Positions 8,981-28,244 of a stretch of 28,555 bases of DNA are shown here, piece by piece. The stretch's first letter is position 1. Every line of letters starts with the position of its first letter. Source of the stretch: Alphaproteobacteria bacterium (GTDB lineage Bacteria; Pseudomonadota; Alphaproteobacteria; Rhizobiales; Beijerinckiaceae). The notes under the pieces were generated by a model. The model searched no databases. It had not been told where the DNA came from and was given only the letters and a program-made list of their open reading frames with translations. The translations under genes were made by a program, and so were the position numbers. The DNA lies in the NCBI GenBank assembly GCA_009921785.1, contig RFXE01000001.1:1-28555 (forward strand), read 5' to 3'.

Positions 8981-9279
8981 TGACGATTGCGCTTCTCGGA
9001 TCAGCACCGCTTCAAACAGAATTACAGAAATCAAATTCTAAACTCGCATCCCTTGCAGAAGACTTTGAAACAACATTTCTCGCATCAATGTTCGGGCAAA
9101 TGACATCGTTGCTCGATGGTGATGGCCCGCTCGGTGGACAAGGCGCAGGCGGTGATGCCTGGCGCGCCATGCTCACTGATGAATTGGCCAAAAGCGTATC
9201 CCGTTCCGGTGGCGTCGGCATCGCCCGTAGTGTTCATGCCGAACTCATAGCCCTCCAAGCTTCCGGAAACACACAATGA
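8977..9279 (+). CDS. flgJ: Single-domain FlgJ (rod-binding, no muramidase domain)
   Basis: AEDFETTFLASM, DAWRAMLTDELAKSVSRSGGVGIA; overlaps the flgI stop. Confidence 0.85.
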   Translation: MMTIALLGSAPLQTELQKSNSKLASLAEDFETTFLASMFGQMTSLLDGDGPLGGQGAGGDAWRAMLTDELAKSVSRSGGVGIARSVHAELIALQASGNTQ

Positions 9280-9767
9280 CACATCCGACTAAAAACTCTG
9301 TTCCGCTCACGCGGCCCGTAATCAATTCAGAAAGTGATGCTGAGGCCCTATGCAAGCTGGTTGAAGAACGGCTTGATGCGGTAGAAACGCTAATACGCGA
9401 AGAGACAGATCGCCTCGCTGAGGCACGGCTACGCGACGCTTTTGCACTTTTTGAAAAGAAAAGCCAGCTCACGGAAACCTATCATCGCGATGTATTGAAG
9501 CTTAAAGATAACGCCGTTGCACTTGCGCGATTTAAACCACAGGGACTCGATCGCCTAAAGGCGCGCCAATCCCGTTTTGAAGCAGCACTCGATGCCAATA
9601 TCAAAGTTTTGCAGACATTGAACAAGGCGTCGGAACATCTTATTCGCGGTCTTGCCCATGATGTCGAAGCGCCGCGCGCACTTGATGTCTATAATCGGAA
9701 TGGGAAAATGCCGGGACAAAATGCGTTAACGCGGGTTCAACCCCTGATCATTTCGCGCAAAAGCTAA
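9276..9767 (+). CDS. FlgN/FlbY-like flagellar export chaperone
   Basis: Helical 163-aa ORF overlapping the flgJ stop (LIREETDRL, KKSQLTETY, YNRNGK). The position after flgI-flgJ is that of FlbY/FlgN. Confidence 0.65.
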   Translation: MTHPTKNSVPLTRPVINSESDAEALCKLVEERLDAVETLIREETDRLAEARLRDAFALFEKKSQLTETYHRDVLKLKDNAVALARFKPQGLDRLKARQSRFEAALDANIKVLQTLNKASEHLIRGLAHDVEAPRALDVYNRNGKMPGQNALTRVQPLIISRKS

Positions 9768-9902
9768 GGCAAGAAATTTTCAATTCAAATTCTAACTGTA
9801 ATTGAGGGATATTTCATACGATTTTTTTGGAGATTAGAGCCTATAACGAAGGTCCCTTGGTCACTCTCTTAAGGATTGACTCGATCTTGAGGACTTGAGC
9901 CC

Positions 9903-10277
9903 ATGACTTCCACCGCGATTCCTTCTTCCCTGAATAGGGTTTCCGTCGCGGACACCGAAACCGGCGTACCGCGCTTTCAGAATACAAAGACCGAAACACA
10001 AACTGAAGGGGACGAAAAAAACGCCCCCACCAAACCCGCCCCATCGGCCGAGGCTAAACCCGCTCCCAATGCTACGGTGAGACGCACAACAATCGACTGG
10101 GAAACCGGCTCAGTTGTCTTCCGTGTCATTGATGAACATAGCGGTCAGACAGTCAGCCAAAGCCCAGAAGAAGCGTTATTGCGCTTGCGCGCCTATGCAC
10201 GGCAAAATGAAACAACTGCGGATACCAATGCTGAACAGCCACAGCATTCGCCACCGCGGACGGAAAAGACCGTGTGA
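9903..10277 (+). CDS. FlaG-like flagellar protein with a low-complexity P/T/E-rich N-terminus
   Basis: IDWETGSVVFRVIDEHSGQTVSQSPEEALLRL resembles the FlaG core motif (V-x-VID-xx-(T/S)G-x-V-x-RQIP-xE-xL); lies next to the flagellin gene. Confidence 0.6.
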   Translation: MTSTAIPSSLNRVSVADTETGVPRFQNTKTETQTEGDEKNAPTKPAPSAEAKPAPNATVRRTTIDWETGSVVFRVIDEHSGQTVSQSPEEALLRLRAYARQNETTADTNAEQPQHSPPRTEKTV

Positions 10278-10291
10278 AAACGAGGGTACGA

Positions 10292-10307
10292 TTAAGAATT
10301 TGTTAAC
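10292..10307 (+). promoter_or_regulatory. CtrA full binding site upstream of flagellin
   Basis: TTAA-GAATTTG-TTAAC, an exact consensus match, in the intergenic region about 235 bp before the flagellin start. Confidence 0.75.
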
Positions 10308-10541
10308 GCTCGCGATGCGAGCTGCGCGATCATGATAAATCTGTTGCGTGCATTTTTTTGGTTGCACCAATAATTAAAATCAACCTCAAATTTTAATTTA
10401 CACTGAAATTTACCATATTCCTCGGGACTTTGCCGACTCTATGGAGTGGCACGCCTCCACCCATGATCCTTCTGCGCGCTGCAGGACGCAGCGTAACCTC
10501 GGAGCGAAACAAAGCTCCACTCATCAGAAGGATGAACACGA

Positions 10542-12095
10542 ATGTCTATGTCTATTGCAATGGCCGCCGGCATGAATGCCCTTGTTGGCATCAACTCCCA
10601 ACTCCAAGACCTCCAAGCGCAAGCGCTTTCAGGTAAAAAGATTAGCAATGCATCAGATGGACTAGCAGCCTATCTCAGCTCGCAGACCTACACAGATCGC
10701 GCGAGCCGTCTGAGCAGCATCAACTCGACACTCTCGCAAAACTTGGGTACCATCAAAGCCGCCAGCACCGGTCTTTCGTCGATCAGCAAGACGATCAGTG
10801 ACACGCTTGATCAGCTGAAATCGGCGTCTCAGACTCAGGCTCAGGTTGTTGGAACGGGCGGTGGTTTCTCGCAAACCGGCGACACCACAACAACCGCGGC
10901 GATGTCGTTTACCTCCGTCAATGCTGCAGGTGTCGCAACAAATATTGCCATTAACGGCAACTCGACTTTCTTCAACGCTAACGGTAACGCCATTGCTATT
11001 GGTGGCCAGAAACTGACACAAGGCAATGTTTATTCGTTTTCGGTCAGCGGTAAAACCAACTATGTACGCATTGCTGCAGCAGGTGATGCAGTCGTAGGTG
11101 CGGGCGACGGATCAAGCGCGGCCAATGCTGTCAATGTCACAACGATATCAGCCTTGATGAACTCCATTCAGGGCATGAACACGGCGGGCGCGCAGTCCAA
11201 TAGCGCGGGCTATATTAACGTTTCTGCTCCCGCGGCCGGTGCCAATAACTCGCTTATCTATAGCATGACGGTAAACAACGTCATGAATAATGACGGTACC
11301 ACCAATACGAATCTCGGCATGTCTGTCGTATCATACGCAATGGGTGCATTGACCAATAACGTCACAAATATGATGACTGCGGGCCGCACGGCAACCCAAG
11401 CAAACTCAACCTATTCGACCGATGCGCAGAGCAACGGTGGCACTTCTGGTACGGCTGGTCAGTCGGTTTCTTATACCGGTCAGAAAAACGTCTATACGGC
11501 CGGTACAGGTGCTGTTGCGGCTGATACCAAACGTGCTGCAGCTGCGGCTTCTTACAAACTGGCTCTTACCGCCCTTGACCAGTACTTAAAGGATGCTTCA
11601 GTTTCAGGGATCAACTTGCTCAATGGCGATTCATTGGTGGCGACCTTCAATGAAAAGGGCATCGGCAGCACGATCCAGTTAACAAAGTCAGATGGTACCG
11701 CCGCAAGCTACGGCTCAACCGGCCTTGGATTGGTCAACGCGACCGGCGCGCAGGATTATGCGAATAATTTCGCGACCAATGTTGACTCTGTTGATGCCAG
11801 CGGTAACCCGCTGACCGGTCTACAGGCCGCGATCAACAAATTGACAGCCGCGCAGACAACAATCCAGCTCGGCGTTGCGCAAGTTGGTCAGTTCCAAAGC
11901 ACCATCCAAAATCGAAGCGACTTTAACGTGGCGATCATTAGCCTCCTGAATGACTCGGCCAACAACCTGACCGCAGCTGACATGACACAGGTCAGCACGA
12001 TGACAGCGGCCCTTCAGGTTCAACAGAGCTTCGCACAGGCCATTCTCTCGGCCACGAAGCAGTCTGACCAGTCCATCCTCCAATTGCTCCGGTAA
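10542..12095 (+). CDS. fliC: Flagellin (Bradyrhizobium/Methylobacterium FliC-type, divergent termini)
   Basis: N-terminal LSGKKISNASD, DASVSGINLLNGD, and C-terminal QNRSDFNVAII...NNLTAADM...QSDQSILQLLR; A/G/N/S/T-rich central variable region. Confidence 0.88.
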   Translation: MSMSIAMAAGMNALVGINSQLQDLQAQALSGKKISNASDGLAAYLSSQTYTDRASRLSSINSTLSQNLGTIKAASTGLSSISKTISDTLDQLKSASQTQAQVVGTGGGFSQTGDTTTTAAMSFTSVNAAGVATNIAINGNSTFFNANGNAIAIGGQKLTQGNVYSFSVSGKTNYVRIAAAGDAVVGAGDGSSAANAVNVTTISALMNSIQGMNTAGAQSNSAGYINVSAPAAGANNSLIYSMTVNNVMNNDGTTNTNLGMSVVSYAMGALTNNVTNMMTAGRTATQANSTYSTDAQSNGGTSGTAGQSVSYTGQKNVYTAGTGAVAADTKRAAAAASYKLALTALDQYLKDASVSGINLLNGDSLVATFNEKGIGSTIQLTKSDGTAASYGSTGLGLVNATGAQDYANNFATNVDSVDASGNPLTGLQAAINKLTAAQTTIQLGVAQVGQFQSTIQNRSDFNVAIISLLNDSANNLTAADMTQVSTMTAALQVQQSFAQAILSATKQSDQSILQLLR

Positions 12096-12122
12096 GCGGA
12101 ACGCGTATCCTGAAAGAACGAG

Positions 12123-12149
12123 AAAGCGGGGCTCCGGCCCCGCTTTTTT
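12123..12149 (+). terminator. Intrinsic (probably bidirectional) terminator after flagellin
   Basis: AAAGCGGGGC-tccg-GCCCCGCTTT followed by more T residues; lies between convergent genes. Confidence 0.85.
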
Positions 12150-12177
12150 AGATTGTTCTCTATTTGAACTGCTTATC

Positions 12178-12975
12178 TCAATTCATCGCCACCGCATTCG
12201 CCTTCGGCGCGTGAGGAACAAAAGCAGGGCCTGCGAATTGACGCCAAGCGGTTTCATCGCCCGCAAACACATTGCGATCAACATTACCTTTAATGCCCGG
12301 TACGCGACCTTGATCCGTATATTGCCACATGGCCCAGCGGCGATCACCGTAACGTTCATGCGGTTGCGCATTCACAGTGCGCACCCACAACGGATAATCA
12401 TGTAAATCACCATCGATGATATCGCGATAAAAATCGATCGTCGTATAAATCATTGGCTTTTTGCCATAGTGCTTTTCAACCGCAGTCAAAAAAGTGCGGA
12501 TCGATTTGAGCGCCTGATCGCGCGGCACTTTCTTCGGGCATTTTTCACTCGCGGCCCCATACCACTCGACATCGAGCACAGGCGGCAACGCATCTTTTTC
12601 AACGGGCACGTGATTAAAGAACCATTTGATTTGATCCTGCACCGGCCGACACCAATAATAGAAATGATAGGCGCCGCGCGGCACACCGGCATCCTTCGCC
12701 ATCATCCAATGAAGGGCGAAATTTTCATCGGCATGATCACCGCCCTCAGTCGCTTTGATATAAGCGAAGCGCGTGCCGCCTTTGCGTGCCTCATGCCAAT
12801 CAATCTGGCCCTGATAGCGCGACACATCAACGCCGTGAACTGGATAGACCTGCGCAACAGGGATCATGGCGGAAGAGGATCCGGATGAGGCCAGCGGCTT
12901 TTTGTCGAAGTTAAACCCCGAACATCCGGCGAGACCCGCCGTCATCGCGATTAGAAAGCCGGCGCGACGCGCCAT
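12178..12975 (-). CDS. GH25 lysozyme/muramidase, predicted lipoprotein
   Basis: HGVDVSRYQG, FAYIKATEG, GAYHFY, LPPVLDVEW, WQYTDQGRVPGIKGNVDRN; lipobox LAGC after a hydrophobic stretch. Start placed at ATG 12975 (alternative 12999). Confidence 0.92.
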   Translation of the reverse strand: MARRAGFLIAMTAGLAGCSGFNFDKKPLASSGSSSAMIPVAQVYPVHGVDVSRYQGQIDWHEARKGGTRFAYIKATEGGDHADENFALHWMMAKDAGVPRGAYHFYYWCRPVQDQIKWFFNHVPVEKDALPPVLDVEWYGAASEKCPKKVPRDQALKSIRTFLTAVEKHYGKKPMIYTTIDFYRDIIDGDLHDYPLWVRTVNAQPHERYGDRRWAMWQYTDQGRVPGIKGNVDRNVFAGDETAWRQFAGPAFVPHAPKANAVAMN

Positions 12976-13134
12976 GACAAAAAAACCAAAGCCCAACATT
13001 CTACCCCATCCCACATTCACATTTGAACGCGTGATGTGGCACAAAAAATTTTAATAAATCGGTAACAAATCAATTTTTTTAATTAGACGCATTTTTGTTT
13101 CGATTAACCGGTACCCACTTAATCGCAAAATGCG

Positions 13135-14547
13135 TTAGCTCAAACCAAACCACAGCGTCGCAATCCCCAAAAAGGAGAAAAATCCGACAACATCGGTGAC
13201 TGTTGTGACGAATACGCCCGACGAAACCGCTGGATCGGCACGGAACCGCTCAAGTGTTAAGGGGATCAGGATACCACCCAAAGCACCGGCCACGAGATTA
13301 ACCGTCATGGCGAGCGAAATCACAAAGCCGATATTCCAATCTTGGAACCAGACTGACGCGATAGCCGCGGTGATAATCCCAAAAGCGAGTCCGTTCAAAA
13401 GACCGACGAAGGTTTCGCGGAAGGTCACGCGAATGGCATTGGCCGCACTCAGCTCACGCGTCGCAAGTGCACGCACGGCTACGGTCATGGTTTGTGTCGC
13501 GGCAACACCGCCCTGCCCCGCCACAATGGGTGCTAACACCGCAAGTGCCACCATCTTGGCAAGCGAGGCTTCAAACAAACCCAAAACGGATGAGGCTAAA
13601 AACGCCGTGAGGAGGTTCACGAAGAGCCAACCAAAACGGCTCTTCGTTGTTTCAAGAATAGAGTCAGAGAGTTCTTCTTCGCCGCGCACACCACCGAGCG
13701 CTTTGATTTCTTCGTCAGCTTCTTCCTGGATCACGTCAACGATGTCGTCGATGGTGACAACGCCCAACAAGCGATTGTCTTCATCAACAACCGGAACTGA
13801 AACAAGATTATAACGCTGGAAAAGACGCGCAACATCCTCACCATCATCTGTCGCTTCAACGCGCCGACGGTCGGCATTCATCAAGTCCTCGATCCGCGCC
13901 GTGCGCCGCGCGCGCACAAGACGGTCGAGAAATACATTGCCTAAAAGATGATAGGACGGATCAACAACAAAGACTTCGAAAAAACTATCCGGCAGATCAG
14001 GCGTTTCCGCGAGATGATCGATCACCTGCCCCGCTGTCCAGAAGGGTGGCACCGCAATCAAATCCGTCTGCATCAGACGACCGGCAGAGCCTTCGGGATA
14101 ATCAAGGCTCTTTTGTAGCGCGACACGATCAAGTGCTGGCAGCGCGTCAAGAATTTCGGCCTGATCTTCTTTATCGAGATCTTCGAGAATATAGACCGCG
14201 TCATCGCTCTCGAGTTCGCGTACCCCTTCGACAAGTGTCTCGGTGTCGAGCTCTTCGAGAATTTCTTCACGCACTGCGTCATCAACTTCCGTGAGCGCGG
14301 CAAAGTCGAAGGCCGGACCAAGAAGCTCAATGAAGGTCGGACGCTGATCATGATCAATGGCTTCAAGCAATGTCGCCTGATCGGCTTCATGAAGATCGGT
14401 AACGAGCGCGCCCAGCGCATCGGCATCGCCGCTTTCAAGCGCCGTTTCGACAAGAGCAAGGAAGCGCGGATCGAGCGCGCCTTCCTCGTCACGGAACGCG
14501 GGCGGTGGGGCTGAGGGGCCCGACGATAAATGGGTATGATCGGTCAT
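13135..14547 (-). CDS. mgtE: Magnesium transporter MgtE
   Basis: Acidic N-domain, CBS pair (YPEGSAGRLMQ, YNLVSVPVVD, TIDDIVD) and transmembrane region (GQGGVAATQ, DPAVSSGVFVTTVTDVVG). Confidence 0.96.
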   Translation of the reverse strand: MTDHTHLSSGPSAPPPAFRDEEGALDPRFLALVETALESGDADALGALVTDLHEADQATLLEAIDHDQRPTFIELLGPAFDFAALTEVDDAVREEILEELDTETLVEGVRELESDDAVYILEDLDKEDQAEILDALPALDRVALQKSLDYPEGSAGRLMQTDLIAVPPFWTAGQVIDHLAETPDLPDSFFEVFVVDPSYHLLGNVFLDRLVRARRTARIEDLMNADRRRVEATDDGEDVARLFQRYNLVSVPVVDEDNRLLGVVTIDDIVDVIQEEADEEIKALGGVRGEEELSDSILETTKSRFGWLFVNLLTAFLASSVLGLFEASLAKMVALAVLAPIVAGQGGVAATQTMTVAVRALATRELSAANAIRVTFRETFVGLLNGLAFGIITAAIASVWFQDWNIGFVISLAMTVNLVAGALGGILIPLTLERFRADPAVSSGVFVTTVTDVVGFFSFLGIATLWFGLS

Positions 14548-14958: not shown

Positions 14959-15690
14959 GGGTCTTGCCTAGCTGAGTGAGGGAAAAACCGTCTAAGGCTA
15001 TGGAAAGACATGAAAAATCGCTACTTTGTCCGTTCACGCATTTTTGAAGCCAAATTTCGCGAGATTGTCCGCTACTTTTCGGTTGATCTCACCGCGCTGC
15101 AAGCTGCAGCGTTGAGCGGCGTAAATCGCAATACGATCAATAGAATCTATCGCGATTTACGTGCGCGCATTGGCTAGGTTTGCGTTGTCCAGCGACCAAT
15201 GTTTTGCGTTGTCGAGGTCGATGAAAGCCTGTTCGGCGCAAAGCGGGTCAAGGGCAAACGAGGGCGTGGTGCCTATGGAAAAACGACTGTCTTCGGCGTC
15301 TTTGAAAGGGAGAGACAAGTCTATACCGAGATTGTCCCGAATAGCTCAAAAGCCACGTTACAAGGCATTATTCGAGGTCGGGTTGATGTATCAACCGTGA
15401 TTAATTCCGATGGTTGGCGAGGCTATAACGGGCTCGTCGACTTAGGCTATGGACACTTTCGAATAGATCATTCGAAGGACGAGTTCTCAAAAGGCGGTGT
15501 CCATATCAATGGGATCGAGGGCTTCTGGGGATTTGCAAAAGTCAGGCTCGCCAAATTTAAAGGCATCACCGATGCAACGTTCCATCTTCACCTGAAAGAA
15601 ACAGATTGGCGCTTCAATCATCGCCATTCCGACAAATGCAAAACCTAGCTAAAATACCTCCGAAAATCACCGCTTAACTAGGCAAGACCC
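14959..15690 (+). mobile_element. IS1595-family (IS1016-like) insertion sequence, 732 bp
   Basis: Terminal inverted repeats GGGTCTTGCCTAGctgagtg and (reverse complement) GGGTCTTGCCTAGttaagcg, 13 bp perfect and 17/20 overall. Flanked by a TAATTTT direct repeat (14952-14958 and 15691-15697). Contains a DDE transposase frame. Confidence 0.9.
15010..15681 (+). pseudogene. IS1595-family transposase with two in-frame amber stops
   Basis: The frame from ATG 15010 reads MKNRYFVRSRIFEAKFREIVRYF...ARIG*VCVVQRPMFCVVEVDES...SDGWRGY...HINGIEGFW...KCKT*LKYLRKSPLN*; TAG at 15175 and 15646. Confidence 0.88.
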
Positions 15691-16259: not shown

Positions 16260-17441
16260 ATGAAAAAAGATGATCTAACGATGATTGCCTCATATGACTG
16301 GGGATTTCCGGTGCCTATTGCCTACGGGCTAGGACGTCTGGCCGAAATCGGGCAGCACTGCATAGGCTTGGGCATCGACAATCCCATGATCGTGACTGAT
16401 AGCGGCAGCCGTGACTTGCCCTTCATCGGACGGCTACAATCCTCTCTTCATGATGCAGGGCTGACGTCGTCCCTGTTTTCGGACATTTCGCCAAATCCGC
16501 TGGATAGCGAGATAGGTTCGGGGCGTGCTGCCTTCATTAAGGGCGGCCATGACGCGATCATCGCGATCGGCGGTGGCAGTGCCATGGATGGCGGTAAGGC
16601 TATTTGCCTTACCGCGCACAACGATTTTGACCTTTGGGCTTTTGAATATGAACAGCCTGTTCCCGTAATGATGCAGGGGCACCGGTTTCCTGCTCTGATC
16701 ACCATCCCTACGACAGCCGGCACCGGAGCCGAAACCGAAAGCACCGCCATGATCACCCATGCGGCCAAGGGCATGAAGTTCTGCGTTTGGCACCCAGACT
16801 TAAAACCCGCAGTGGCCGTGCTGGACCCGGAACTGACCGTTGGTCTGCCAAAAAATCTTACTGCCTGGACAGGGGCCGATGCACTTGTTCATGCTATCGA
16901 GGCGTATCTGGTGCCGAGCTTCCATCCATTGTGCGATGGCTTAGCGCTGGAAGGATTAGCGCTCATTACGAAATGGCTGCCCGTCGCCGTAGAGGAGCCA
17001 GAGAACTTAACCGCAAGAGGCGGCATGCTGATGGGGTCATGCCTTGCCGGGATTGCTTTCCTGAAGGGCCTTGGGCTTGTCCATGCTATTTCCCATATGA
17101 TCGGGGCGGAATTTAACACGCAGCACGGTCTGACCAATGCGATACTTCTGCCGGTGGTGCTGCGTTTCAATCTGCCCGGTCAGGAGGATAAGGTTCGCCG
17201 GATGGCGCAAGCAATGAACCTGTCAGACAACTCGGTAGAAGGCTTAATTTCAGCAGTCGAACTCCTTCTAAACAAGATCGGGATACCGAAGTCGTTAGGC
17301 GAAATTGGCGTCCCTACCGATAGCGCTGCAAGGATCGCCGAAAAGGCACTGAAAGACAGTGCAGCCCGCTCTAACCCCCGCGTTGCCACGCTGACTGAAG
17401 TTCGTGGGTTGATCGAAATCGCAATCGCAAAGGCACGCTGA
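16260..17441 (+). CDS. Iron-containing alcohol dehydrogenase (alternative start 16281)
   Basis: IAIGGGSAMDGGK, IPTTAGTGAE, and metal ligands DALVHAIEAY, HAISH, HGLTNA. Confidence 0.93.
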   Translation: MKKDDLTMIASYDWGFPVPIAYGLGRLAEIGQHCIGLGIDNPMIVTDSGSRDLPFIGRLQSSLHDAGLTSSLFSDISPNPLDSEIGSGRAAFIKGGHDAIIAIGGGSAMDGGKAICLTAHNDFDLWAFEYEQPVPVMMQGHRFPALITIPTTAGTGAETESTAMITHAAKGMKFCVWHPDLKPAVAVLDPELTVGLPKNLTAWTGADALVHAIEAYLVPSFHPLCDGLALEGLALITKWLPVAVEEPENLTARGGMLMGSCLAGIAFLKGLGLVHAISHMIGAEFNTQHGLTNAILLPVVLRFNLPGQEDKVRRMAQAMNLSDNSVEGLISAVELLLNKIGIPKSLGEIGVPTDSAARIAEKALKDSAARSNPRVATLTEVRGLIEIAIAKAR

Positions 17442-17457
17442 TAGTAGGGTCGGAAAA

Positions 17458-18885
17458 ATGCAGAACCTGACGAAATTCTTTATTGGTGGCGAATGGGTCA
17501 AACCATTGTCGTCTGCGACCTTGCCAATTCTAAACCCTGCGACTGAGGAGCCGATCGGCACTGTTGCTATGGGTATCTCTGAAGACGTGGATTCCGCAGT
17601 GAAGGCCGCAAAGGCCGCATTCACAGCCTTCTCTGTCACCTCTAAACAGGAGAGACTTCACCTTCTCTACCGATTGAAAGCTGCGACCGAAAGGCGTCTC
17701 GAGGATCTGGCACAGGCCATGCGGATCGAGATGGGCGCGCCGATAACAATGGCGAGGTCCGCGCAAGCAGATGCAGCCATTGGCCATCTGCGAGGCTTCA
17801 TCGAAGCGCTGCAAGAGCTTGAAGAGAGCAAAGTGCTCGCTAATGGCGATATCCTTTTACGCGAACCGATCGGTGTCTGTGGGCTTATTACTCCCTGGAA
17901 CTGGCCGATTAACCAGATTGCGCTCAAGGTCATTCCCGTTCTGGCCACAGGATCAACGTGTGTCCTAAAGCCTTCGGAACACACACCGATCTCGGCCATG
18001 ATTTATGCTGAAATCATTGACGAGGCCGGCTATCCGCCTGGGGTATTTAATCTGGTAAACGGGGATGGCCCCACGGTGGGTGCGGCCCTTTCGCGACATC
18101 CTGAAATTCAAATGATGTCCTTCACAGGATCAACTAGGGCTGGAATCGCTGTTACCCATGATGCCGCCGAAACCGTGAAGCGCGTGACGTTGGAACTGGG
18201 AGGAAAATCGCCGAACCTAGTTTTTTCCGACTGCAAGCTCGAGGAGCGTGTGGCAGCCTCCGTTCGGGAATGTATGTTCAACACTGGTCAGTCGTGCGAC
18301 GCGCCGAGCCGGCTTTTGGTCGAACGATCATGCTACGACGAGGCGCTTCGGATTGCCAAACTGACAATAGATTCCGTCAAGGTCGGTGACCCAGAGCAAA
18401 CGGGCGACCATATCGGACCTCTCTTCGATAAGATTCAATTTGACCGCGTGCAGTCCATGATCGAAGCGGGTCTTGCCGAGGGCGCGACGCTTCTGGCAGG
18501 TGGCCTCGGTAAGCCAGATGGAGTCACCACCGGATGGTTTGCCAAGCCTACGATATTTGCCGACGTGTCAAACCATATGCGGGTCGCCCAGGAAGAGATA
18601 TTCGGTCCCGTGCTCGTCATCATTCCGTTTGATGACGAGGATGATGCAATTGCTATTGCTAATGACACGCCATACGGGCTGGCCGCCTATCTGCAAACGG
18701 GTGATCCGGAGAGGGCGCTGCGGGTCGCCAAACGTCTGCGTGCTGGGGCTGTTCACATAAACGGTGGTGGTTTCAACTATGGCTCGCCTTTTGGCGGCTA
18801 TAAGCAGTCGGGGAACGGCCGCGAAGGAGGAATAATGGGATTGGAAGATTACCTCGAAACCAAAACGCTGCATGGAATGAGCTAA
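17458..18885 (+). CDS. NAD(P)-dependent aldehyde dehydrogenase
   Basis: ITPWNWP, KPSEHTP, SFTGST, LELGGKSP, catalytic Cys in GQSCDAP, EEIFGPV, FGGYKQSGNGRE. Confidence 0.95.
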   Translation: MQNLTKFFIGGEWVKPLSSATLPILNPATEEPIGTVAMGISEDVDSAVKAAKAAFTAFSVTSKQERLHLLYRLKAATERRLEDLAQAMRIEMGAPITMARSAQADAAIGHLRGFIEALQELEESKVLANGDILLREPIGVCGLITPWNWPINQIALKVIPVLATGSTCVLKPSEHTPISAMIYAEIIDEAGYPPGVFNLVNGDGPTVGAALSRHPEIQMMSFTGSTRAGIAVTHDAAETVKRVTLELGGKSPNLVFSDCKLEERVAASVRECMFNTGQSCDAPSRLLVERSCYDEALRIAKLTIDSVKVGDPEQTGDHIGPLFDKIQFDRVQSMIEAGLAEGATLLAGGLGKPDGVTTGWFAKPTIFADVSNHMRVAQEEIFGPVLVIIPFDDEDDAIAIANDTPYGLAAYLQTGDPERALRVAKRLRAGAVHINGGGFNYGSPFGGYKQSGNGREGGIMGLEDYLETKTLHGMS

Positions 18886-19089
18886 AAAGGCCTAGTATTC
18901 GATTCAAGGTCGCAAAACTTGCCCTGCCCAAGAGGTATGGGTTTAATCTAGGACATCAAGCATGCTTAAGACCTAGTTTTGAGGGATTTCGATGAGATAT
19001 CAGATATCGAAAGGGTCTAATGCCGAATAGACAAAGGATATTATTCATTGTCCGGATCGGCTTTTATATCACTCGGGGAAATTCAAATT

Positions 19090-19596
19090 ATGTCGCTTAC
19101 GCTTTACGATATGTCCGTGCCAGTTTTTGTCCAATCGCTTACGGCACTCGCCGATGTTCTCAAAAAAGCCGAAGCACATGCGGATGCGCACAAAATTGAG
19201 CATACGGTTTTTCTGAACGCGCGCCTCGCTCCTGATATGTTCGCATTGACGAGACAGGTTCAACTCGCAACCGATTTCGCAAAAGGCGGATCGGCCCGTG
19301 TCTCGGGCGTTGACACGCCGAGCTATTCCGACACGGAATCGACCTTCGCTGAACTCTATGGACGGATCGAGAAGACGATCGCCTTCATCACGTCAATCCC
19401 GAAGGAAAAATTCGTCAACGCCGAAACGCGCGATATCCTCGTTCCGTTGCGACCCGAGCCGCGGACATTCAATGCACTTGTGTACTTACGTCACGGCGCG
19501 CTCGCCAATTTCTTTTTCCATACGACGACGGCCTATGCCATTCTGCGTCATAATGGTGTCGAACTTGGAAAGCGTGATTATCTCGGAACCTATTGA
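19090..19596 (+). CDS. DUF1993 family protein
   Basis: LNARLAPDMFALTRQVQLATD, DTESTFAELYGRI, NFFFHTTTAYAILRHNGVELGKRDY. Start placed at ATG 19090. Confidence 0.9.
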   Translation: MSLTLYDMSVPVFVQSLTALADVLKKAEAHADAHKIEHTVFLNARLAPDMFALTRQVQLATDFAKGGSARVSGVDTPSYSDTESTFAELYGRIEKTIAFITSIPKEKFVNAETRDILVPLRPEPRTFNALVYLRHGALANFFFHTTTAYAILRHNGVELGKRDYLGTY

Positions 19597-20596: not shown

Positions 20597-20959
20597 TTAA
20601 AGAGCCTTTACGATATCCCTGTGAAACTCTTTCAGGTGGGTTTGAGCCCACCTCGCAAGTTCCTCAACGATAGGTCGCAGCGCTTTACCGCTTTCTGTTA
20701 AACGGAAGGCGTTATTGCGAGCGCTCGCTTGCGGGTTCGTTCGCTCGATTAGTTTTAGGTTAGTAAGCAGTTCGAGCCTCGTGGCGAGGATATTTGTCGA
20801 GATGCGCTCTTTCGACCCAAGAAACTCCGAATAGGTGCGGGTTCCGTATATCAATAAGTCACGAATAATCAGAAGCGACCACTTGTCTCCGAGCACGTCG
20901 AGCGCGGAACTGATCGGGCAAACGGAACGCCAATCGAGTCCTTCCATCCTATCCTTCAC
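20597..20959 (-). CDS. HxlR-family winged-helix transcriptional regulator
   Basis: CPISSALDVLGDKWSLLIIRDL, ISTNILATRL, FRLTESGKALRPI; GGAG 7 nt before GTG 20959. Confidence 0.92.
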   Translation of the reverse strand: MKDRMEGLDWRSVCPISSALDVLGDKWSLLIIRDLLIYGTRTYSEFLGSKERISTNILATRLELLTNLKLIERTNPQASARNNAFRLTESGKALRPIVEELARWAQTHLKEFHRDIVKAL

Positions 20960-21082
20960 AAATCCACTCCAACCTCACTCTGTCTTAACCAATCTACCCG
21001 CGTTGGCTCACTTAGTTGACTTCACGCCCGCGCCCCGTTCCGGTCAAGTCCATCAGTTGCTAGGCTATGGCCATGCCCATCC

Positions 21083-21493
21083 TTATCGAGCCAAGTAGTG
21101 GATAACAATCTGCCAGACATAGACCAACATGGAAACCTGAGCGACCGCAAAAACAGCAGTGCGCAAATAGGGAATCCCAGCGATATAGACTACAGCATGC
21201 AGAATGCGAGCGATGAGGAGCACGATACCTGCAACAAACGTAATGCCATTCGTAGCACCCGTGACGCAGGCGATACCGATGACAGCCGCATATATTGCGA
21301 GGTTGTCGGCGAGATTGCTATGCGCGCGCACCGCCCGGCCACCCCAAGGGGCAACGCCCTCAAGCACTGTGTCACGATTGTAGAAGATCCATTTTATGCC
21401 TCCGGGAACTGATCCGCGCGCGACGACAGGAGGCAAAGTGAGGATTTCTGTGAGCAATGCGAGCGATAACAAAATCCATAAATCAGGTGTCAT
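21083..21493 (-). CDS. MAPEG family membrane protein
   Basis: RAVRAHSNLADNLAIY, ARILHAVVYIAGIPYLRT; four hydrophobic segments. Confidence 0.85.
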   Translation of the reverse strand: MTPDLWILLSLALLTEILTLPPVVARGSVPGGIKWIFYNRDTVLEGVAPWGGRAVRAHSNLADNLAIYAAVIGIACVTGATNGITFVAGIVLLIARILHAVVYIAGIPYLRTAVFAVAQVSMLVYVWQIVIHYLAR

Positions 21494-21553
21494 TCCGTTT
21501 TTCCTTCTGAGTTGTTAAGGGGTATTAGATGCACTTTTTTCGATGCTGATGAT

Positions 21554-22537
21554 CTATTGTGAAATCGATGCCGCCATGTCTCGGAAGGAGACCTCCATCG
21601 GAGTGGGCTTCCACTTCAGCACCTCGAATGTCGCGCTATTGTTGTAAGAGGCTGCCTTTCCAATAAAAGGCAGCATTCCCTTCACTTCGCGGTCGAACAG
21701 GCCCATGATTTTCAAAAGTGTAGTCGGCGCTTTGCGAGAAGGAACCTTCGTGTAGCCCGCTTCTTTAAGAACGTCCGCTACAGTGATCATGTCGATCGGT
21801 TCGGCAGTAGCTGCAATAAACCGCTTACCCGCAGCATCTTTGGCCGTCATCGCCTCGACGTGGAGACGAGCGACATCGCGAACATCAACCATGCCCATGC
21901 TCATATCGGGAACCATTGGCATCTTTCCACCAATCATAGCGGTCATTAACCCCACGCTCTGTCCGTCCATTTTCGCGCCCAGAGACGGCCCGAACACCGC
22001 GCCCGGGTTTACAACCGTGAGTTCCATATTTCCTGCCTTGACAGCATTCCACGCGGCACGTTCGGCCAAGGTTTTGCTCTTGGCGTATGCACCAATGTTT
22101 GCCTCAGTATTGGACCAGGAATCTGGCCCGTAGCGCCCCGTGTCCTTTCCCGCGATTATCGCAAAGGTTGATGATGTAAGAACTAGGCGTTTGACACCTT
22201 CGCGTTGGGCCGCAGTAATAACCCGCTTGGTTCCTTCGACCGCAGGAGCGATCAGTTCATTCTCATCCTTTGGCTCTTTGAGCAGGAAGGGAGATGCAAC
22301 ATGTATCGCGAAAGAGCAGCCTTTCATCGCCTCACCCCAACCAGGGTCTGAGAGAAGATCAGCTTCGACGAAGCTCAACCGATCAATCGGAGCAACCTTT
22401 GCAAGCGCCTCACGGGTGGCATCTGACTTAGCGCGAGATCGGATCGTTCCGATAACTTCATAGCCCTGCCTTAGCAGTTCGGCAGCACAGTGCTGCCCTA
22501 TGTATCCAGTCACCCCGGTCAGCAAAACACGTTCCAT
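21554..22537 (-). CDS. NAD-dependent epimerase/dehydratase-type SDR (aldehyde reductase / dihydroflavonol reductase-like)
   Basis: LLTGVTGYIG, HVASPF, LIAPAVEGT, YAKSKTLAE (YxxxK), VNPGAVFGP, VDVRDVA. Confidence 0.9.
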   Translation of the reverse strand: MERVLLTGVTGYIGQHCAAELLRQGYEVIGTIRSRAKSDATREALAKVAPIDRLSFVEADLLSDPGWGEAMKGCSFAIHVASPFLLKEPKDENELIAPAVEGTKRVITAAQREGVKRLVLTSSTFAIIAGKDTGRYGPDSWSNTEANIGAYAKSKTLAERAAWNAVKAGNMELTVVNPGAVFGPSLGAKMDGQSVGLMTAMIGGKMPMVPDMSMGMVDVRDVARLHVEAMTAKDAAGKRFIAATAEPIDMITVADVLKEAGYTKVPSRKAPTTLLKIMGLFDREVKGMLPFIGKAASYNNSATFEVLKWKPTPMEVSFRDMAASISQ

Positions 22538-22815: not shown

Positions 22816-23622
22816 TTAGCTCTTAGGACGCACGCGCGAAGCCGTTCCCTTGATAAAATCGTCTAGGCGCGCTCGGGCAGCAGGTTGAGTATTGACTACC
22901 CCTGCAATGACAGCCTCGGCATAGGAAGCGTCGAGTGCGGACATATTACCGAGATGGCTAATGGCCGAACAGATTGCAAAATTGCTAAGGGGGAGGTTCT
23001 GCGCGGCTTTGGCTGCCAAGGTGAGGGCTGCATCAAGGCTTGACCCTTCGACCAAATACTCCGCGAGGCCAACATCGACCGCCTCTTGCCCTTGATAAAC
23101 GCGCCCGGTTAACATCATGTCGATCATCCGTGCCTTGCCCACCAGACCCGCGACACGGATCGTTGCACCACCACCAGTGAACAGGCCACGCTGACCCTCG
23201 GGCAAAGCAAAATAGGTCGAATTGTCCATGACGCGAACATGCGCGGCACTGGCAAGTTCCAAACCTCCGCCCACGACTGCGCCCTTCAAGGCTGCGATGA
23301 TAGGCACACCGCCGTATTCCATCTTGTTGAAAGCTTCATGCCAGCGCATGCAGATATGCATGAAATCGGAGGGGCTTCGGTCAGCCTGATGATGTTCCGC
23401 CAGATCGAGGCCCGCGCAGAAATGATCACCTGATGCTGCGAGTACAATAGCACGCACTCCGGCGCGTGGGGCAGTCGCGAAAAACTCAACAAGCTCTTCG
23501 ATCGTGTACGAATCTAGCGCGTTGCGTTTAGTCGGACGGTTCAATGTGACCACCCAGACGCCGTCGTCGCCGGCAACAATGTCAAGGTTTTTGAAGCGCG
23601 ATAAATCAATTTGGATGCCCAT
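22816..23622 (-). CDS. dmdD: Crotonase-family methylthioacryloyl-CoA hydratase/hydrolase (DmdD)
   Basis: [53 protein letters not shown] and FALPEGQRG (both catalytic Glu), [18 protein letters not shown]...RVRP; closely matches Ruegeria pomeroyi DmdD as I recall it. True start ATG 23622 (268 aa). Confidence 0.88.
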
Positions 23623-23653
23623 GTTGCGGTCCTGTTTTGTAAGGGTAAAGGGA

Positions 23654-25336
23654 TCAGAAATAAGCGCCCGAAAGACTTGCGGCACCGCAAATGGCACGCA
23701 CTCGTTGAAGGCCGGTCTCGATGAGAATGTGGTTAAGGTAGAATCGTGCCGTTGAGATCTTGGCCTCAAGAAAGGTGCGGTCTGCAACACTTCGCAGGCT
23801 CGCCTCGGCGGCAAGAAGTATACGCGCCATTTGCCAGCCTGCCACCAAATTGCCTGCCAGCATTAGATATGGCACCGCAGCGCCGTACGCATCAATTGAG
23901 GTGCAGGTCAACAAGTGAGCGACCACGGCCTGAAAATCCTGCCGAGCGGCACTCAAACGAAGAGCCGCTTCTTGCGCAAATGGTACCCCGTGCTGCAATT
24001 CCGCTTCGGTTTCGACAATCATCGCGCAGAGGCGACCAGCGATCGAGCCGCCGTCACGCAAGGTCTTTCTTCCCAAGAAATCATTTGCCTGGATAGCGGT
24101 CGTGCCCTCGTAGATCGGTAAGATGCGAGCATCGCGGTAATACAGTGCTGCCCCTGTTTCTTCAATAAACCCCATTCCACCATGAATTTGCACGCCAAGC
24201 GATGCGACCTCTATAGCCATTTCGGAGTTGAAACCCTTGACGAGCGGTACTAGAAATTCCACCAGCGCTGTGTCGCCCCGATCCTGACAACCGGCCGTAT
24301 AAATGGCCAAAGCTCGACAGGCTTCAGTGGTGGCCCGCATATGCATCGCCATACGGCGCACGTCGGGATGGTTGATGATGGTGACTGCGCCAGTAGCATG
24401 GCCGTCAATCGGACGACCTTGAAGGCGGTCCCTCGCATAGCTCATGGCCTGTTGCGTGGCGCGTTCGGCAATTGCCACGCCCTGCACGCCGACTGCAAAA
24501 CGGGCGGCGTTCATCATGGTGAACATGTATTCCAACCCAGCATTTTCCTGGCCGATCAGAAAGCCCGTTGCGCCCTCGAAAGATAGAACGCAGGTTGGGC
24601 TTGCACGGACACCAAGTTTGTGTTCGATTGATTGGCATAGGACAGCGTTCCGCTCGCCATCCGCTAGGATCTTCGGCACCAGAAACAGACTGATCCCCTT
24701 TATCCCCTTCGGCGCCCCCGGTGTGCGGGCGAGGACGAGATGAATTATGTTTTCTGCAAGATCATGCTCCCCATAGGTGATAAATATCTTGGTGCCACTC
24801 AGCTTGTAGGTACCGTCCGTCAGTGGTTCAGCCTGAGTGCGGAGCAGCGACAGATCGCTACCGGCCTGTGGCTCCGTCAGGTTCATCGTTCCGGTCCAAA
24901 CCCCTGCAACAAGTTGCGGCAGGTAGGTGGCTTTTATCTGCTCCGATCCAAAATGTTGAAGCGCTTCGATAGCTCCATCGGTCAGCAGAGGGCAAAGTGC
25001 AAAGCTCAAGTTAGCAGCGTTCAGGATTTCACCCGCAGCAGCCCCGACCGTGCGCGGCAGACCCTGACCGCCATATTCTAAGGGGTGCAGCAATCCCTGC
25101 CAGCCCATCGCGACGAATTTGTTGTAAGCTTCGCGAAAACCCTTTGGAGTGGTCACCTGACCCGAATTGTAAATCGAGCCTTCGCGATCACCCGGCGCGT
25201 TCAGCGGTGCTATCTCTTCGGCACAAAAGCGGCTTAGCTGTTCAAGTATCGTAGTAGCCATATCCAGATCCACCTCGCCGAGCGTAATATGGGCAAGGTT
25301 GAACAGAATGTCTTGCAAAGGGGCTTCATAGGTCAT
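23654..25336 (-). CDS. dmdC: Acyl-CoA dehydrogenase, MMPA-CoA dehydrogenase (DmdC) type
   Basis: [87 protein letters not shown]; directly upstream of dmdD, as in R. pomeroyi. Confidence 0.85.
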
Positions 25337-26949
25337 GGCTGCACCCCCAAGTCGCGGGCGGCGGCGCGCAGCATAAACTTCTGAATCTTACCAGTGGCAG
25401 TTTTGGGTATGGGGCCAAAGACCACAGTCTTCGGAGCTTTGAAATGGGCAATACGATCGCGACAAAAGGTGATGATCTCGGCCTCGGTCGTGGCGGCACC
25501 CTCGCGCAGCTCGACAAAGGCGCAGGGGCTTTCGCCCCATGTGGCATGCGGGCGGGCAACCACCGCCGCCGCCAGAATGCAAGGATGGCGATACAGCACT
25601 GCTTCTACCTCGATGGAAGAGATGTTCTCACCGCCGGAAATGATCACATCCTTTAAACGGTCGCGGATTTGCAAGTAGCCGTCAGAATGGATTACGGCGG
25701 CATCGCCGGACCAGAACCAGCCACCGGCAAATGCCTCAGATGTGGCGGCCGCGTCTTTGTAATATCCCTTCATCACCGTATTGCCGCGAATAGCGATTTC
25801 GCCTTGGGAAATGCCGTCGCGCGGCACATCCTCCCCGGTTGCGCGGTCCACAACGCGAATGTCCTCTACCATCGGAAAGCAGACGCCCTGCATCGCCTGC
25901 TTTTCGGCACGCGCAGCGGCAGGCAAAGCGTCCCACTCCTCTTGCCACAAACACTGCGCGATGTGGCCGTAGGTTTCCGTCAATCCATAGACCTGCATCA
26001 CGTCTAGCCCCAAGACCGCCGCCTTCTCCAGTGTCGCGGGCGGTGGCGGCGCACCCGCCGTTAGCACTCTGATCTTTGGCTCAAACGTCAGCGCCTCGGC
26101 TTCAGCGCTGTCACAAAGCATTTGCAGCACGATGGGGGCAGCCCCCAGATGGGTCACATTGTGTAACGCCATCGCTGCCAACAACTTTGCGGGCGTCGTG
26201 TCTCGGGTAAAGATGATATGACCGCCGACGATCGCTATGGCCCAGGGGTGGTTCCACCCGTTGCAATGGAACATCGGCACGACCGAAAGATAGGTTGGAT
26301 GCGGCGGCAAAGCCCATCCCGCCACCGCGCCCATTGCCATCAGATAAGCTCCGCGATGATGATAGATTACTCCCTTGGGCCGCCCCGAAGTGCCCGAGGT
26401 ATAATTGAGCGCCAGGGCTTGCCATTCATCGGTGGGCAAAGTCCAAGCCATCGGCGGATGCGTCACCAGACCGTCATAAGTTGTCTGGCCGAAGCCCGTT
26501 CCGGAAACATCGCAGATATCAACGACTGGAATTACGTTGCCATTGATCGCGAAGGCGGCACGCAGCAAGGGCGCGAATGTGGTATCGGCGATCACAAGCC
26601 GTGCATCCGAATGGCTAAGGATGTATGCGACCGTTTCGGGCTCAAGCCGTGTGTTAATCGTATTCAGCACTGCGCCCGAAAGCGGCACGGCGTAGTGCAG
26701 TTCGAACAGTTCGGGAATGTTCGGAGCCAACACGGCGATCGTATCCCCTGTCCCGATGCCCATTTCTGCCAGACCCGCCGCGACACAACGGCAACGGGTG
26801 CTGGTTTCACCCCAAGTCCGGCGAATATCGCCATAGGTCACGGCGGGCAGGTTTGCATAAACCGTCTCGGCCCGCTTCAAGAAAGACAGTGGCGACAGTG
26901 CCACGTGGTTGGCGGCGGCACGCATAGGGGAATCATAGTGCTGCTGCAT
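25333..26949 (-). CDS. dmdB: Acyl-CoA synthetase, MMPA-CoA ligase (DmdB1-clade-like)
   Basis: ANHVALSPLSFLKRA, LNYTSGTSGRPKGVIYHHRGAYL, VVPMFHCNGWNH, QVYGLTETYG, DRLKDVIISGGENISS, PKTATGKIQKF; ATGA overlap with dmdC. Start placed at ATG 26949. Confidence 0.78.
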   Translation of the reverse strand: MQQHYDSPMRAAANHVALSPLSFLKRAETVYANLPAVTYGDIRRTWGETSTRCRCVAAGLAEMGIGTGDTIAVLAPNIPELFELHYAVPLSGAVLNTINTRLEPETVAYILSHSDARLVIADTTFAPLLRAAFAINGNVIPVVDICDVSGTGFGQTTYDGLVTHPPMAWTLPTDEWQALALNYTSGTSGRPKGVIYHHRGAYLMAMGAVAGWALPPHPTYLSVVPMFHCNGWNHPWAIAIVGGHIIFTRDTTPAKLLAAMALHNVTHLGAAPIVLQMLCDSAEAEALTFEPKIRVLTAGAPPPPATLEKAAVLGLDVMQVYGLTETYGHIAQCLWQEEWDALPAAARAEKQAMQGVCFPMVEDIRVVDRATGEDVPRDGISQGEIAIRGNTVMKGYYKDAAATSEAFAGGWFWSGDAAVIHSDGYLQIRDRLKDVIISGGENISSIEVEAVLYRHPCILAAAVVARPHATWGESPCAFVELREGAATTEAEIITFCRDRIAHFKAPKTVVFGPIPKTATGKIQKFMLRAAARDLGVQP

Positions 26950-26959
26950 GGCGCACCCG

Positions 26960-28063
26960 TTACAGGAAGGGCAGTTCGACCAGTTTGGCTGCAACCTCAC
27001 CCTGATCGCGCTGAATTATCACGGTCTCGCCCACCGGAACGGTTGCATCGATCAAAGCATAACCGATATTCGCCTTCATGCGGGGCGACCAGACACAGTT
27101 CGTCATCACGCCAACGCGATGGCCGCTTCGGGTGATGTCCTCGCGGCGGAAGCCCAAGGGGGCGGACGCCGAACCCTCAAGCACTAAGCCCAATTGGTGA
27201 CGTTTTACCCCCTCGGCTTTAATTCGACGCAAGGCGTGAATCCCCACCACATCATCAGATACATCAAGATCGACATATTTACCCAAGCGAACTTCGAATG
27301 GGTTGGTCAGATCGTCCGTGTCACCACCCACCGACACCAATCCACTTTCCGTTCTCTCCGCGGTCGCGGGCGCACCGGGTCCGATGCCCCAAGGCCGGCC
27401 GGCCTCTTTAAATATGTTCCACAACTCGGTGCCGCGCGAACCATCTTTCAGATAGATCTCGAACCCGCCTTGCTTCGACCAACCCGATCGCTGAACCGCT
27501 ACCGGAATTCCATTAATCTCGGTCTCGCGGAACCAGAAGTATTTCAGCCCGCGGACCCAGTCGCCTATCACATGGGCCACCACATCCTCAGCCATTGGCC
27601 CCTGCAGAGCCATTGGCGAAACGTCGGGTTCCGAGATCTCGACATCTAGGCCCCGCTCGGCGGCGATGGCGCTAGCCCAGAACCAGATGTCGCTGTCTGC
27701 AATCGACAACCAGTAAAGATCATCGGCTAGCTTCAAAAGGATAGGGTCATTGATGATCGTACCGCGATGGTTGCAAAGGGGCACGTATTTACCTTGCCCG
27801 ACTTCGCATTTCGACAGATCGCGAGGGCTAAGAATTTGTGCTAAGCGGCCAGCATCCGCTCCCTTCAGCTGCACCTGACGCTCAACCCCAACATCCCATT
27901 GCGAGACGCCGTTGATCAGCCGCCAGTATTCGGCCTCGGGGTCGCCGTAGGAAGTGGGCATGATCATTCGGTTGTAGACATTTGCCGCTTTCAGCCCGTC
28001 CGTAATGGCAGCCTCGAAAAAGGGAGAAGGTCTGATGCGTGTGTTGGGCTGAAAGGAAAACAC
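26960..28063 (-). CDS. dmdA: GcvT-fold THF-dependent methyltransferase, DmdA-like (divergent DMSP demethylase clade)
   Basis: VYNRMIMP, WDVGVERQV, NDPILLKL, WLSIADSD, EPDVSPMALQGP and RSGWSKQGGFEIYL (DmdA-type). GGAG 6 nt before GTG. First gene of the dmdBCD operon. The family call is firm; the substrate is not. Confidence 0.72.
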   Translation of the reverse strand: MFSFQPNTRIRPSPFFEAAITDGLKAANVYNRMIMPTSYGDPEAEYWRLINGVSQWDVGVERQVQLKGADAGRLAQILSPRDLSKCEVGQGKYVPLCNHRGTIINDPILLKLADDLYWLSIADSDIWFWASAIAAERGLDVEISEPDVSPMALQGPMAEDVVAHVIGDWVRGLKYFWFRETEINGIPVAVQRSGWSKQGGFEIYLKDGSRGTELWNIFKEAGRPWGIGPGAPATAERTESGLVSVGGDTDDLTNPFEVRLGKYVDLDVSDDVVGIHALRRIKAEGVKRHQLGLVLEGSASAPLGFRREDITRSGHRVGVMTNCVWSPRMKANIGYALIDATVPVGETVIIQRDQGEVAAKLVELPFL

Positions 28064-28202: not shown

Positions 28203-28244
28203 ATTAGTCAATAATTTATGTCAAGTTATAAATTATTGACTAAT
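28203..28244. promoter_or_regulatory. Perfect 17-bp inverted repeat upstream of the dmd operon
   Basis: ATTAGTCAATAATTTAT-gtcaagtt-ATAAATTATTGACTAAT. Confidence 0.75.

Follow-up and report, generated by a model that had tools for sequence, protein, structure and literature searches.

The window analysed here is a stretch of 28,555 nucleotides from a 2.23-Mb MAG with a completeness of 79%. Towards its end, on the minus strand, lies a group of four genes which resemble those of bacterial DMSP breakdown, followed by three genes of other families. The features considered below are as follows:

28203..28244, no strand assigned: perfect inverted repeat (17-nt arms, 8-nt spacer), at a distance of 140-180 nt upstream from the dmdA-like start codon
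26960..28063, minus strand: dmdA-like gene, the operon's first gene, encoding a predicted THF-binding methyltransferase of the GcvT fold (367 aa)
25333..26948, minus strand: acyl-CoA synthetase, likely an MMPA-CoA ligase (the DmdB role), matching NF006020/PRK08162
23654..25336, minus strand: DmdC-like acyl-CoA dehydrogenase with four ACAD Pfam domains, including Acyl-CoA_dh_C
22816..23622, minus strand: DmdD, methylthioacryloyl-CoA hydratase (crotonase), matching 4izb
21554-22537, minus strand: SDR/epimerase-family gene (Pfam)
21083-21493, minus strand: MAPEG gene (Pfam)
20597-20959, minus strand: HxlR gene (Pfam)

The dmdA-like gene starts with GTG, with GGAG located 7 nt upstream, and the probable start of the synthetase is the ATG at 26948, 11 nt past the dmdA-like stop. 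The ATG of the DmdC-like gene overlaps the stop codon of the synthetase. DmdD starts in fact at the ATG at 23622, which has AGGA upstream and is supported by the homology to 4izb; the longer open reading frame 22816-23814 was discarded as an artefact, being 64 codons too long upstream and overlapping DmdC.

The synthetase scored 770 bits against NF006020/PRK08162 (cut-off 677), as opposed to only 330 bits against the DmdB model NF005426 (3-(methylthio)propionyl-CoA ligase; cut-off 822) and 248 bits against the DmdB structure 6ihk. Judged by these scores it is a PRK08162-type enzyme and falls outside the NCBIfam DmdB family. The product of the third gene is a long-form ACAD with an Acyl-CoA_dh_C domain and aligned with the DmdC structure 6ijc at 429 bits over residues 19-552; MMPA-CoA is its predicted substrate. 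The fourth product shares 78% identity with the DmdD of R. pomeroyi (4izb) over 261 residues (434 bits). Its closeness to that enzyme and its retention of both residues aligned to E121 and E141, the catalytic glutamates of DmdD, mark it as an orthologue; the motifs GGGLELAS and ALPEGQRG are also present.

The inverted repeat is located in an AT-rich region 5' of the operon. Both of its arms were matched in the window only; one exact arm was found in the nearest related locus (L009, 98% identical), and none in the other loci of the family. As it is not conserved, this palindrome is not the operator of the family, and it may be regarded as a candidate operator specific to this lineage. Promoter and terminator scans remained at chance level. 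The SDR, MAPEG and HxlR genes (20597..22537) were rejected as conserved partners of the operon: among 80 related loci they occur in the window and in L009 only, and are considered lineage-specific passengers.

The dmdA-like protein carries the Pfam domains GCV_T and GCV_T_C, and every motif quoted for it in a first-pass annotation of this DNA (RSGWSKQGGFEIY, NDP, ADSD, EPDVSP, VYNRMIMP, GPGAPATAERTESGLVSVGGD and YGDPEAEYWRLINGVS) is found in its translation. Its top NCBIfam model is DmdA (NF009133, an NCBI equivalog), with 349.3 bits over model positions 6-366 of 369, as against just 149 bits for the GcvT model. The curated DmdA cut-off of 410 bits is not reached; five named orthologues scored 341-356 bits. 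In sequence, Pelagibacter DmdA 3tfh (244 bits) comes closest among the solved structures. A structural model on this enzyme had been proposed in the first-pass annotation, and the fold predicted by AlphaFold2 (AF2; pLDDT 94.9) matched 3tfh best: Foldseek ranked 3tfh_A first (E 2e-43, TM 0.95, rmsd 1.8 Å), followed by GcvT 1woo (TM 0.90), and the structural alignment with 3tfh yielded an identity of 34%.

That the gene encodes an ordinary glycine-cleavage T protein (aminomethyltransferase), as its GCV_T domains and database names would have it, was rejected on model scores and gene context, and we consider it highly improbable. The protein scored far below the cut-offs of all three relevant models (NF001567, 149 against 300; TIGR00528, 114 against 236; NF010093, 90 against 459), its neighbours are genes of a CoA pathway with no gcvH or gcvP, and the same genome has a separate, weaker GcvT-like match (L002). 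More generally, the fold and the THF-binding core are held in common with GcvT, the THF domains of dimethylglycine/sarcosine dehydrogenases or oxidases, LigM/DesA and Tdm; these proteins nevertheless give far lower scores, have other gene partners and carry out methylene-THF formation or aryl-ether demethylation. With the DmdAs of Ruegeria pomeroyi (SPO1913 type) and Pelagibacter ubique (3tfh/3tfi/3tfj) the protein shares both the three-domain GcvT fold and a length of about 367 aa.

The phylogenetic position of the protein was determined in two trees, a 104-row LG+G4 tree and a careful 65-row IQ-TREE PMSF tree. The input comprised named marine roseobacter DmdAs, SAR11 DmdAs, the DmdA-model matches in 300 genomes of the host's order (61 families) and full-length representatives at 50% identity; near relatives were used as stand-ins for R. 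pomeroyi and HTCC1062, which are absent from the tree. The GcvT-like gene L002, from elsewhere in the same genome, served as outgroup and had a very long branch in both trees. In the PMSF tree the canonical DmdA clade held 25 rows (support 100/99), including Roseovarius, Shimia, Lentibacter and two SAR11 sequences, while the window protein (P0001) fell in a different clade of 18 rows (100/99) and, inside this, in a tight subclade of its own (100/99), referred to below as its own clade. The topology of the 104-row tree agrees. Sequences of the own clade are 77-98% identical, and the window protein shares 38-42% identity (BLASTP) with those of the canonical clade.

The window protein is thus not inside the smallest clade which unites the Roseobacter and SAR11 types of DmdA, both experimentally validated. 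Since the NF009133 scores in the 300 genomes of the order grade continuously from 669 down to about 320 bits, the cut-off alone marks no natural boundary, and the tree is the better argument. Both the score of 349 bits and the separate clade agree with the earlier description of the protein as a DmdA relative beyond the canonical clade; by sequence and predicted fold, it is a close yet distinct relative of the marine DMSP demethylase. The own clade is not a Roseobacter paralogue group; it belongs mostly to soil and freshwater Alphaproteobacteria and is represented here in a Hyphomicrobiales-type MAG. No published study of this clade was found among the papers searched for dmdA in freshwater, in soil and in the carrier genera.

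The residues that set the clade apart were identified by comparing 72 of its sequences with 38 from the canonical clade. Among 60 columns conserved in canonical DmdA at 90% or more, 47 hold the same residue and 13 are changed. The residues kept include N105-D106-P107, S120, D123, D125, E202, R237 and E239. W195 is also kept, at a position where canonical sequences show W, Y or F; its equivalent, W171, has been called key for the interaction with DMSP (PMC7487153). Differences fixed in the own clade are R32, I34, M35, R48, S54, G91, A132, E136, A231, A233, T234, A/P235, V243, V245, G247 and R259. Four of these states were found in 72/72 (R32), 67/72 (A233), 71/72 (V245) and 72/72 (G247) sequences, and the canonical states opposite them are H (76%), N (84%), Y (79%) and N (82%), respectively.

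The run of substitutions from A231 to G247 (A231, A233, T234, A/P235, V243, V245, G247) lies in and past the ERxE helix. Where the own clade reads A233, A/P235, V243 and V245, its nearest sisters mostly have N, I, L and Y, and G247 stands against A in the sisters and N in canonical DmdA. Because the own clade departs from the canonical and the sister states alike, the changed segment is, on this alignment, a real and derived signature of the clade. The canonical strings that the first-pass annotation had given correspond to the consensus of the 38 canonical sequences (VYNHMLLP and GCPNlIERIEgGLLSYGND), and the deviations from them that it had pointed out are fixed in the own clade, with the counts given above. 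A segment of the YGDPEAEYWRLINGVS type also occurs in other non-canonical DmdA-like clades and is absent from canonical DmdA.

One possible explanation for this signature is that the enzyme has the same fold and the same methyl transfer but acts on another methylated onium substrate, such as dimethylsulfoxonium propionate, dimethylselenoniopropionate or another three-carbon sulfonium, the demethylated product of which would still enter the CoA ligase, dehydrogenase and hydratase steps. The fixed substitutions A233, A/P235, V243, V245 and G247, which differ even from the nearest sisters, and the score below the equivalog threshold of NF009133 both speak in favor of such a shift, as do the mostly non-marine hosts, in whose habitats DMSP is scarce. 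We nevertheless consider it unlikely, in view of the downstream gene content: a DmdD that is 78% identical to methylthioacryloyl-CoA hydratase and has both catalytic glutamates, together with the conserved gene linkage described below. Moreover, DMSP is available on land from plants.

The genomic surroundings of the own clade were surveyed in 80 loci. An adjacent DmdD-like gene was present in 59/80, an acyl-CoA synthetase of the same type in 43/80 and a DmdC-like dehydrogenase in 29/80, and a divergent LysR regulator was found upstream in 60/80. This regulator is missing from the lineage of the window; in the one example scored it is of the GcvA type, at 271 bits against a cut-off of 288. Genes of the DUF2182 and DUF1326 families (DmdE and DmdF) are inserted in eight or nine of the 80 loci, and a YhdH/AcuI-family acrylyl-CoA reductase occurs in seven, in part the same loci that hold dmdE/dmdF (family assigned from two examples, TIGR02823 445 and 429 bits). 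R. lacuscaerulensis cannot demethylate DMSP without DmdE and DmdF, as reported in 2026 (PMC12992908), and their presence next to the own clade in some loci, along with the AcuI-family gene, is a likeness to canonical DmdA which argues against a substrate other than DMSP.

Approached from the side of DmdD, the best 80 DmdD loci fell into 58 with no nearby demethylase (the usual marine dmdC-dmdD pair), 10 with a member of the own clade, 8 with canonical DmdA and 4 with remoter DmdA-like matches. Five of the eight canonical-DmdA/DmdD loci also hold the synthetase family of the window, at 59-64% identity, and the gene order in a Lentilitoribacter MAG is DmdC-DmdD-synthetase-DmdA. A PRK08162-type synthetase lies beside both canonical dmdA and dmdD in the marine loci L255, L266, L267, L299 and L308. 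As these homologous clusters hold the synthetase family and DmdD, the own clade can be said to adjoin the partner genes of canonical DmdA, which again counts against another onium substrate. The linkage to dmdB-like, dmdC and dmdD genes is conserved over many genomes; the proposal that coupling to dmdBCD points to MMPA as the product is therefore reinforced.

Two further observations were made in this survey. The PRK08162-type synthetase, 59-64% identical to that of the window, was seen next to canonical dmdA and/or dmdD, including at L277 (Ruegeria lacuscaerulensis); enzymes of this type seem to form one more family of DmdB-type isoforms, beyond the reach of the NCBIfam DmdB model. In two MAGs labelled Ilumatobacteraceae and Acidimicrobiales (Actinobacteria; L281 and L307), a DmdA with 57-58% identity to that of Roseovarius directly precedes a DmdD with 75-77% identity to the window's, a pair that could reflect transfer into Actinobacteria or mis-binning.

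Sister-clade genes (51-57% identity) have unrelated neighbours and no dmd genes, so the dmd linkage belongs to the own clade and not to all DmdA-like proteins. This diversity of contexts is compatible with a different scenario, in which the protein is a THF enzyme with no sulfonium substrate, one that would for example convert MMPA to 3-mercaptopropionate or have no part in the pathway at all. A precedent is the inactive DmdA-like protein of SAR92 strain H455, which did not restore methanethiol production (PMC10746254), so DmdA-likeness alone is no proof of function, and O-demethylases of the GcvT fold (LigM, DesA) do accept methyl groups from non-onium donors. We consider this scenario quite improbable, less so than a T-protein identity but more so than a change of onium substrate: the gene recurs in a tight first position ahead of MMPA-consuming enzymes, demethylation of MMPA would compete with the remaining operon, and the core residues of DmdA are kept. 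As a separate observation, one sister-clade gene (53% identity; L224:7819-10348) is followed by a PLP enzyme of Cys/Met metabolism of the O-acetylhomoserine sulfhydrylase type, which hints at a role related to sulfur or methanethiol in that sister clade too.

Clusters of a demethylase with genes of the MMPA-CoA pathway are known from SAR92 (dmdA-acuH-dmdB-dmdC; PMC10746254) and SAR11 (dmdA-dmdB-dmdC), and the operon described here is alike in this respect; those clusters differ in being marine and in having AcuH in place of DmdD, and their demethylases complemented an R. pomeroyi dmdA mutant. Compared with canonical DmdA, which in some marine clusters also adjoins the synthetase family and DmdD, the own clade is separate and fully supported, has a fixed signature and a score below the cut-off, and is found mainly in soil and freshwater hosts. 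Its genes, moreover, usually come first in a complete dmd operon, the regulator being a divergent LysR and not the GntR-type DmdR. A parallel in the literature is offered by the non-DmdA clades of Hernandez et al. 2020, whose members are DmdA paralogues that model onto DmdA and keep the equivalent of W171; that paper described a DmdA-like tertiary structure for them and assigned neither function nor genomic context (PMC7487153).

Soil and freshwater Alphaproteobacteria such as Mesorhizobium, Labrys, Gemmobacter, Cypionkella and Tabrizicola are the main carriers of the own clade. More than 100 protein clusters at 82-88% identity were retrieved, listed in the databases as glycine cleavage system protein T or as aminomethyltransferase; they come from numerous MAGs as well as from Mesorhizobium, Aminobacter, Cypionkella and Tabrizicola. 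Genome contigs extended this range to Labrys, Gemmobacter, Aliigemmobacter, Pseudotabrizicola, Rhodobacter and a small number of marine or estuarine taxa. In M. huakuii, Labrys neptuniae, Gemmobacter denitrificans, Aliigemmobacter aestuarii and Ostreiculturibacter nitratireducens, all of which carry the dmdA-like gene, no DmdA above the cut-off was present, which leaves this gene as the only candidate in these hosts. The host MAG itself has no second match to the DmdA model above about 93 bits, and at 79% completeness a canonical dmdA could sit in its missing part.

From the fold, phylogenetic position, core residues and gene linkage of the dmdA-like enzyme we infer its substrate, product and chemistry as follows. 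The gene would probably encode, with a confidence somewhat better than even, a THF-dependent DMSP demethylase which yields MMPA, that is, an isofunctional paralogue of DmdA that was acquired on an island. In the first step, catalysed by this enzyme, N5 of tetrahydrofolate would receive one of the sulfonium methyl groups of DMSP, giving 5-methyl-THF and 3-methylmercaptopropionate (MMPA). The co-transcribed synthetase would then convert MMPA to MMPA-CoA, the DmdC-like dehydrogenase would oxidize this to methylthioacryloyl-CoA, and DmdD would hydrate and cleave the latter to methanethiol, acetaldehyde, CO2 and CoA. The divergent GcvA-type LysR protein would act as the regulator of the operon in most relatives; the present MAG is without it. 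As the gene heads a full operon for DMSP breakdown that is common in soil and freshwater bacteria, it probably fills the role of DmdA outside the sea. On land the substrate could plausibly come from plants: every plant tested was found to produce DMSP in some amount, and a terrestrial DMSP cycle has been put forward (PMC11464771).

Counting against DMSP as the substrate are the missed NF009133 threshold, the 13 changed columns among the near-invariant ones and the position outside the clade of validated enzymes. A more tentative interpretation, to which we give clearly less weight, is that the own clade is a demethylase with a reshaped pocket, adapted to life outside the sea. Canonical DmdAs have Km values in the millimolar range; such a pocket might bind DMSP with a much higher affinity, or might prefer another sulfonium or sulfoxonium propionate from plants or algae. 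If this were true, current dmdA surveys and annotations would have missed a terrestrial and freshwater route of organosulfur demethylation.

DMSP demethylation is regarded as a marine process that is carried out by canonical DmdA. The own clade lies at or under the thresholds usual in surveys, be it the cut-off of the NCBI model or an identity of about 40% to ratified sequences, and its members are named glycine cleavage T protein even though a complete dmd operon starts with them in rhizobia, in other soil bacteria and in freshwater Rhodobacterales. Should they act on DMSP, they would provide an uncounted genetic marker for the terrestrial and freshwater flux from DMSP to methanethiol, as well as a natural second solution to the active site of DmdA, useful for comparison. 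Carriers are available in culture (Mesorhizobium huakuii NBRC 15243, Labrys neptuniae LMG 23578 and Gemmobacter denitrificans), which makes the function of the clade directly testable.

Several lines of evidence indicate that the operon was probably acquired horizontally. No DmdA-like gene was found at E <= 1e-60 in eight other genomes of the host's family, and the nearest locus, L009, comes from a MAG labelled Beijerinckiaceae. Upstream of the operon in that locus (L009:1-8000) are a phage-type integrase, an HTH_17 gene and a malonyl-CoA decarboxylase, along with gene remnants of AMP-binding (truncated), ABC ATPase (fragment), GMC oxidoreductase (C-terminal fragment), abhydrolase and TetR/BetI regulator type. 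The window contains a fragment of an IS1595 transposase at 15199-15648, and the GC content of the operon is 57.1%, compared to 52.2% in the rest of the window. Together these features suggest a mosaic island.

Near the operon, on the opposite strand, 16260-19596 holds genes for a Fe-type alcohol dehydrogenase and an aldehyde dehydrogenase, together with a DUF1993 gene. The dehydrogenase pair (16260-18885) was considered as a sink for acetaldehyde and was rejected, as no linkage to it was seen in other loci. A 517-aa protein with no Pfam match is encoded at 10542-12095, and genes of host type, for the flagellar P-ring protein FlgI, a GH25 lysozyme and the magnesium transporter MgtE, are located at 7856-14547.
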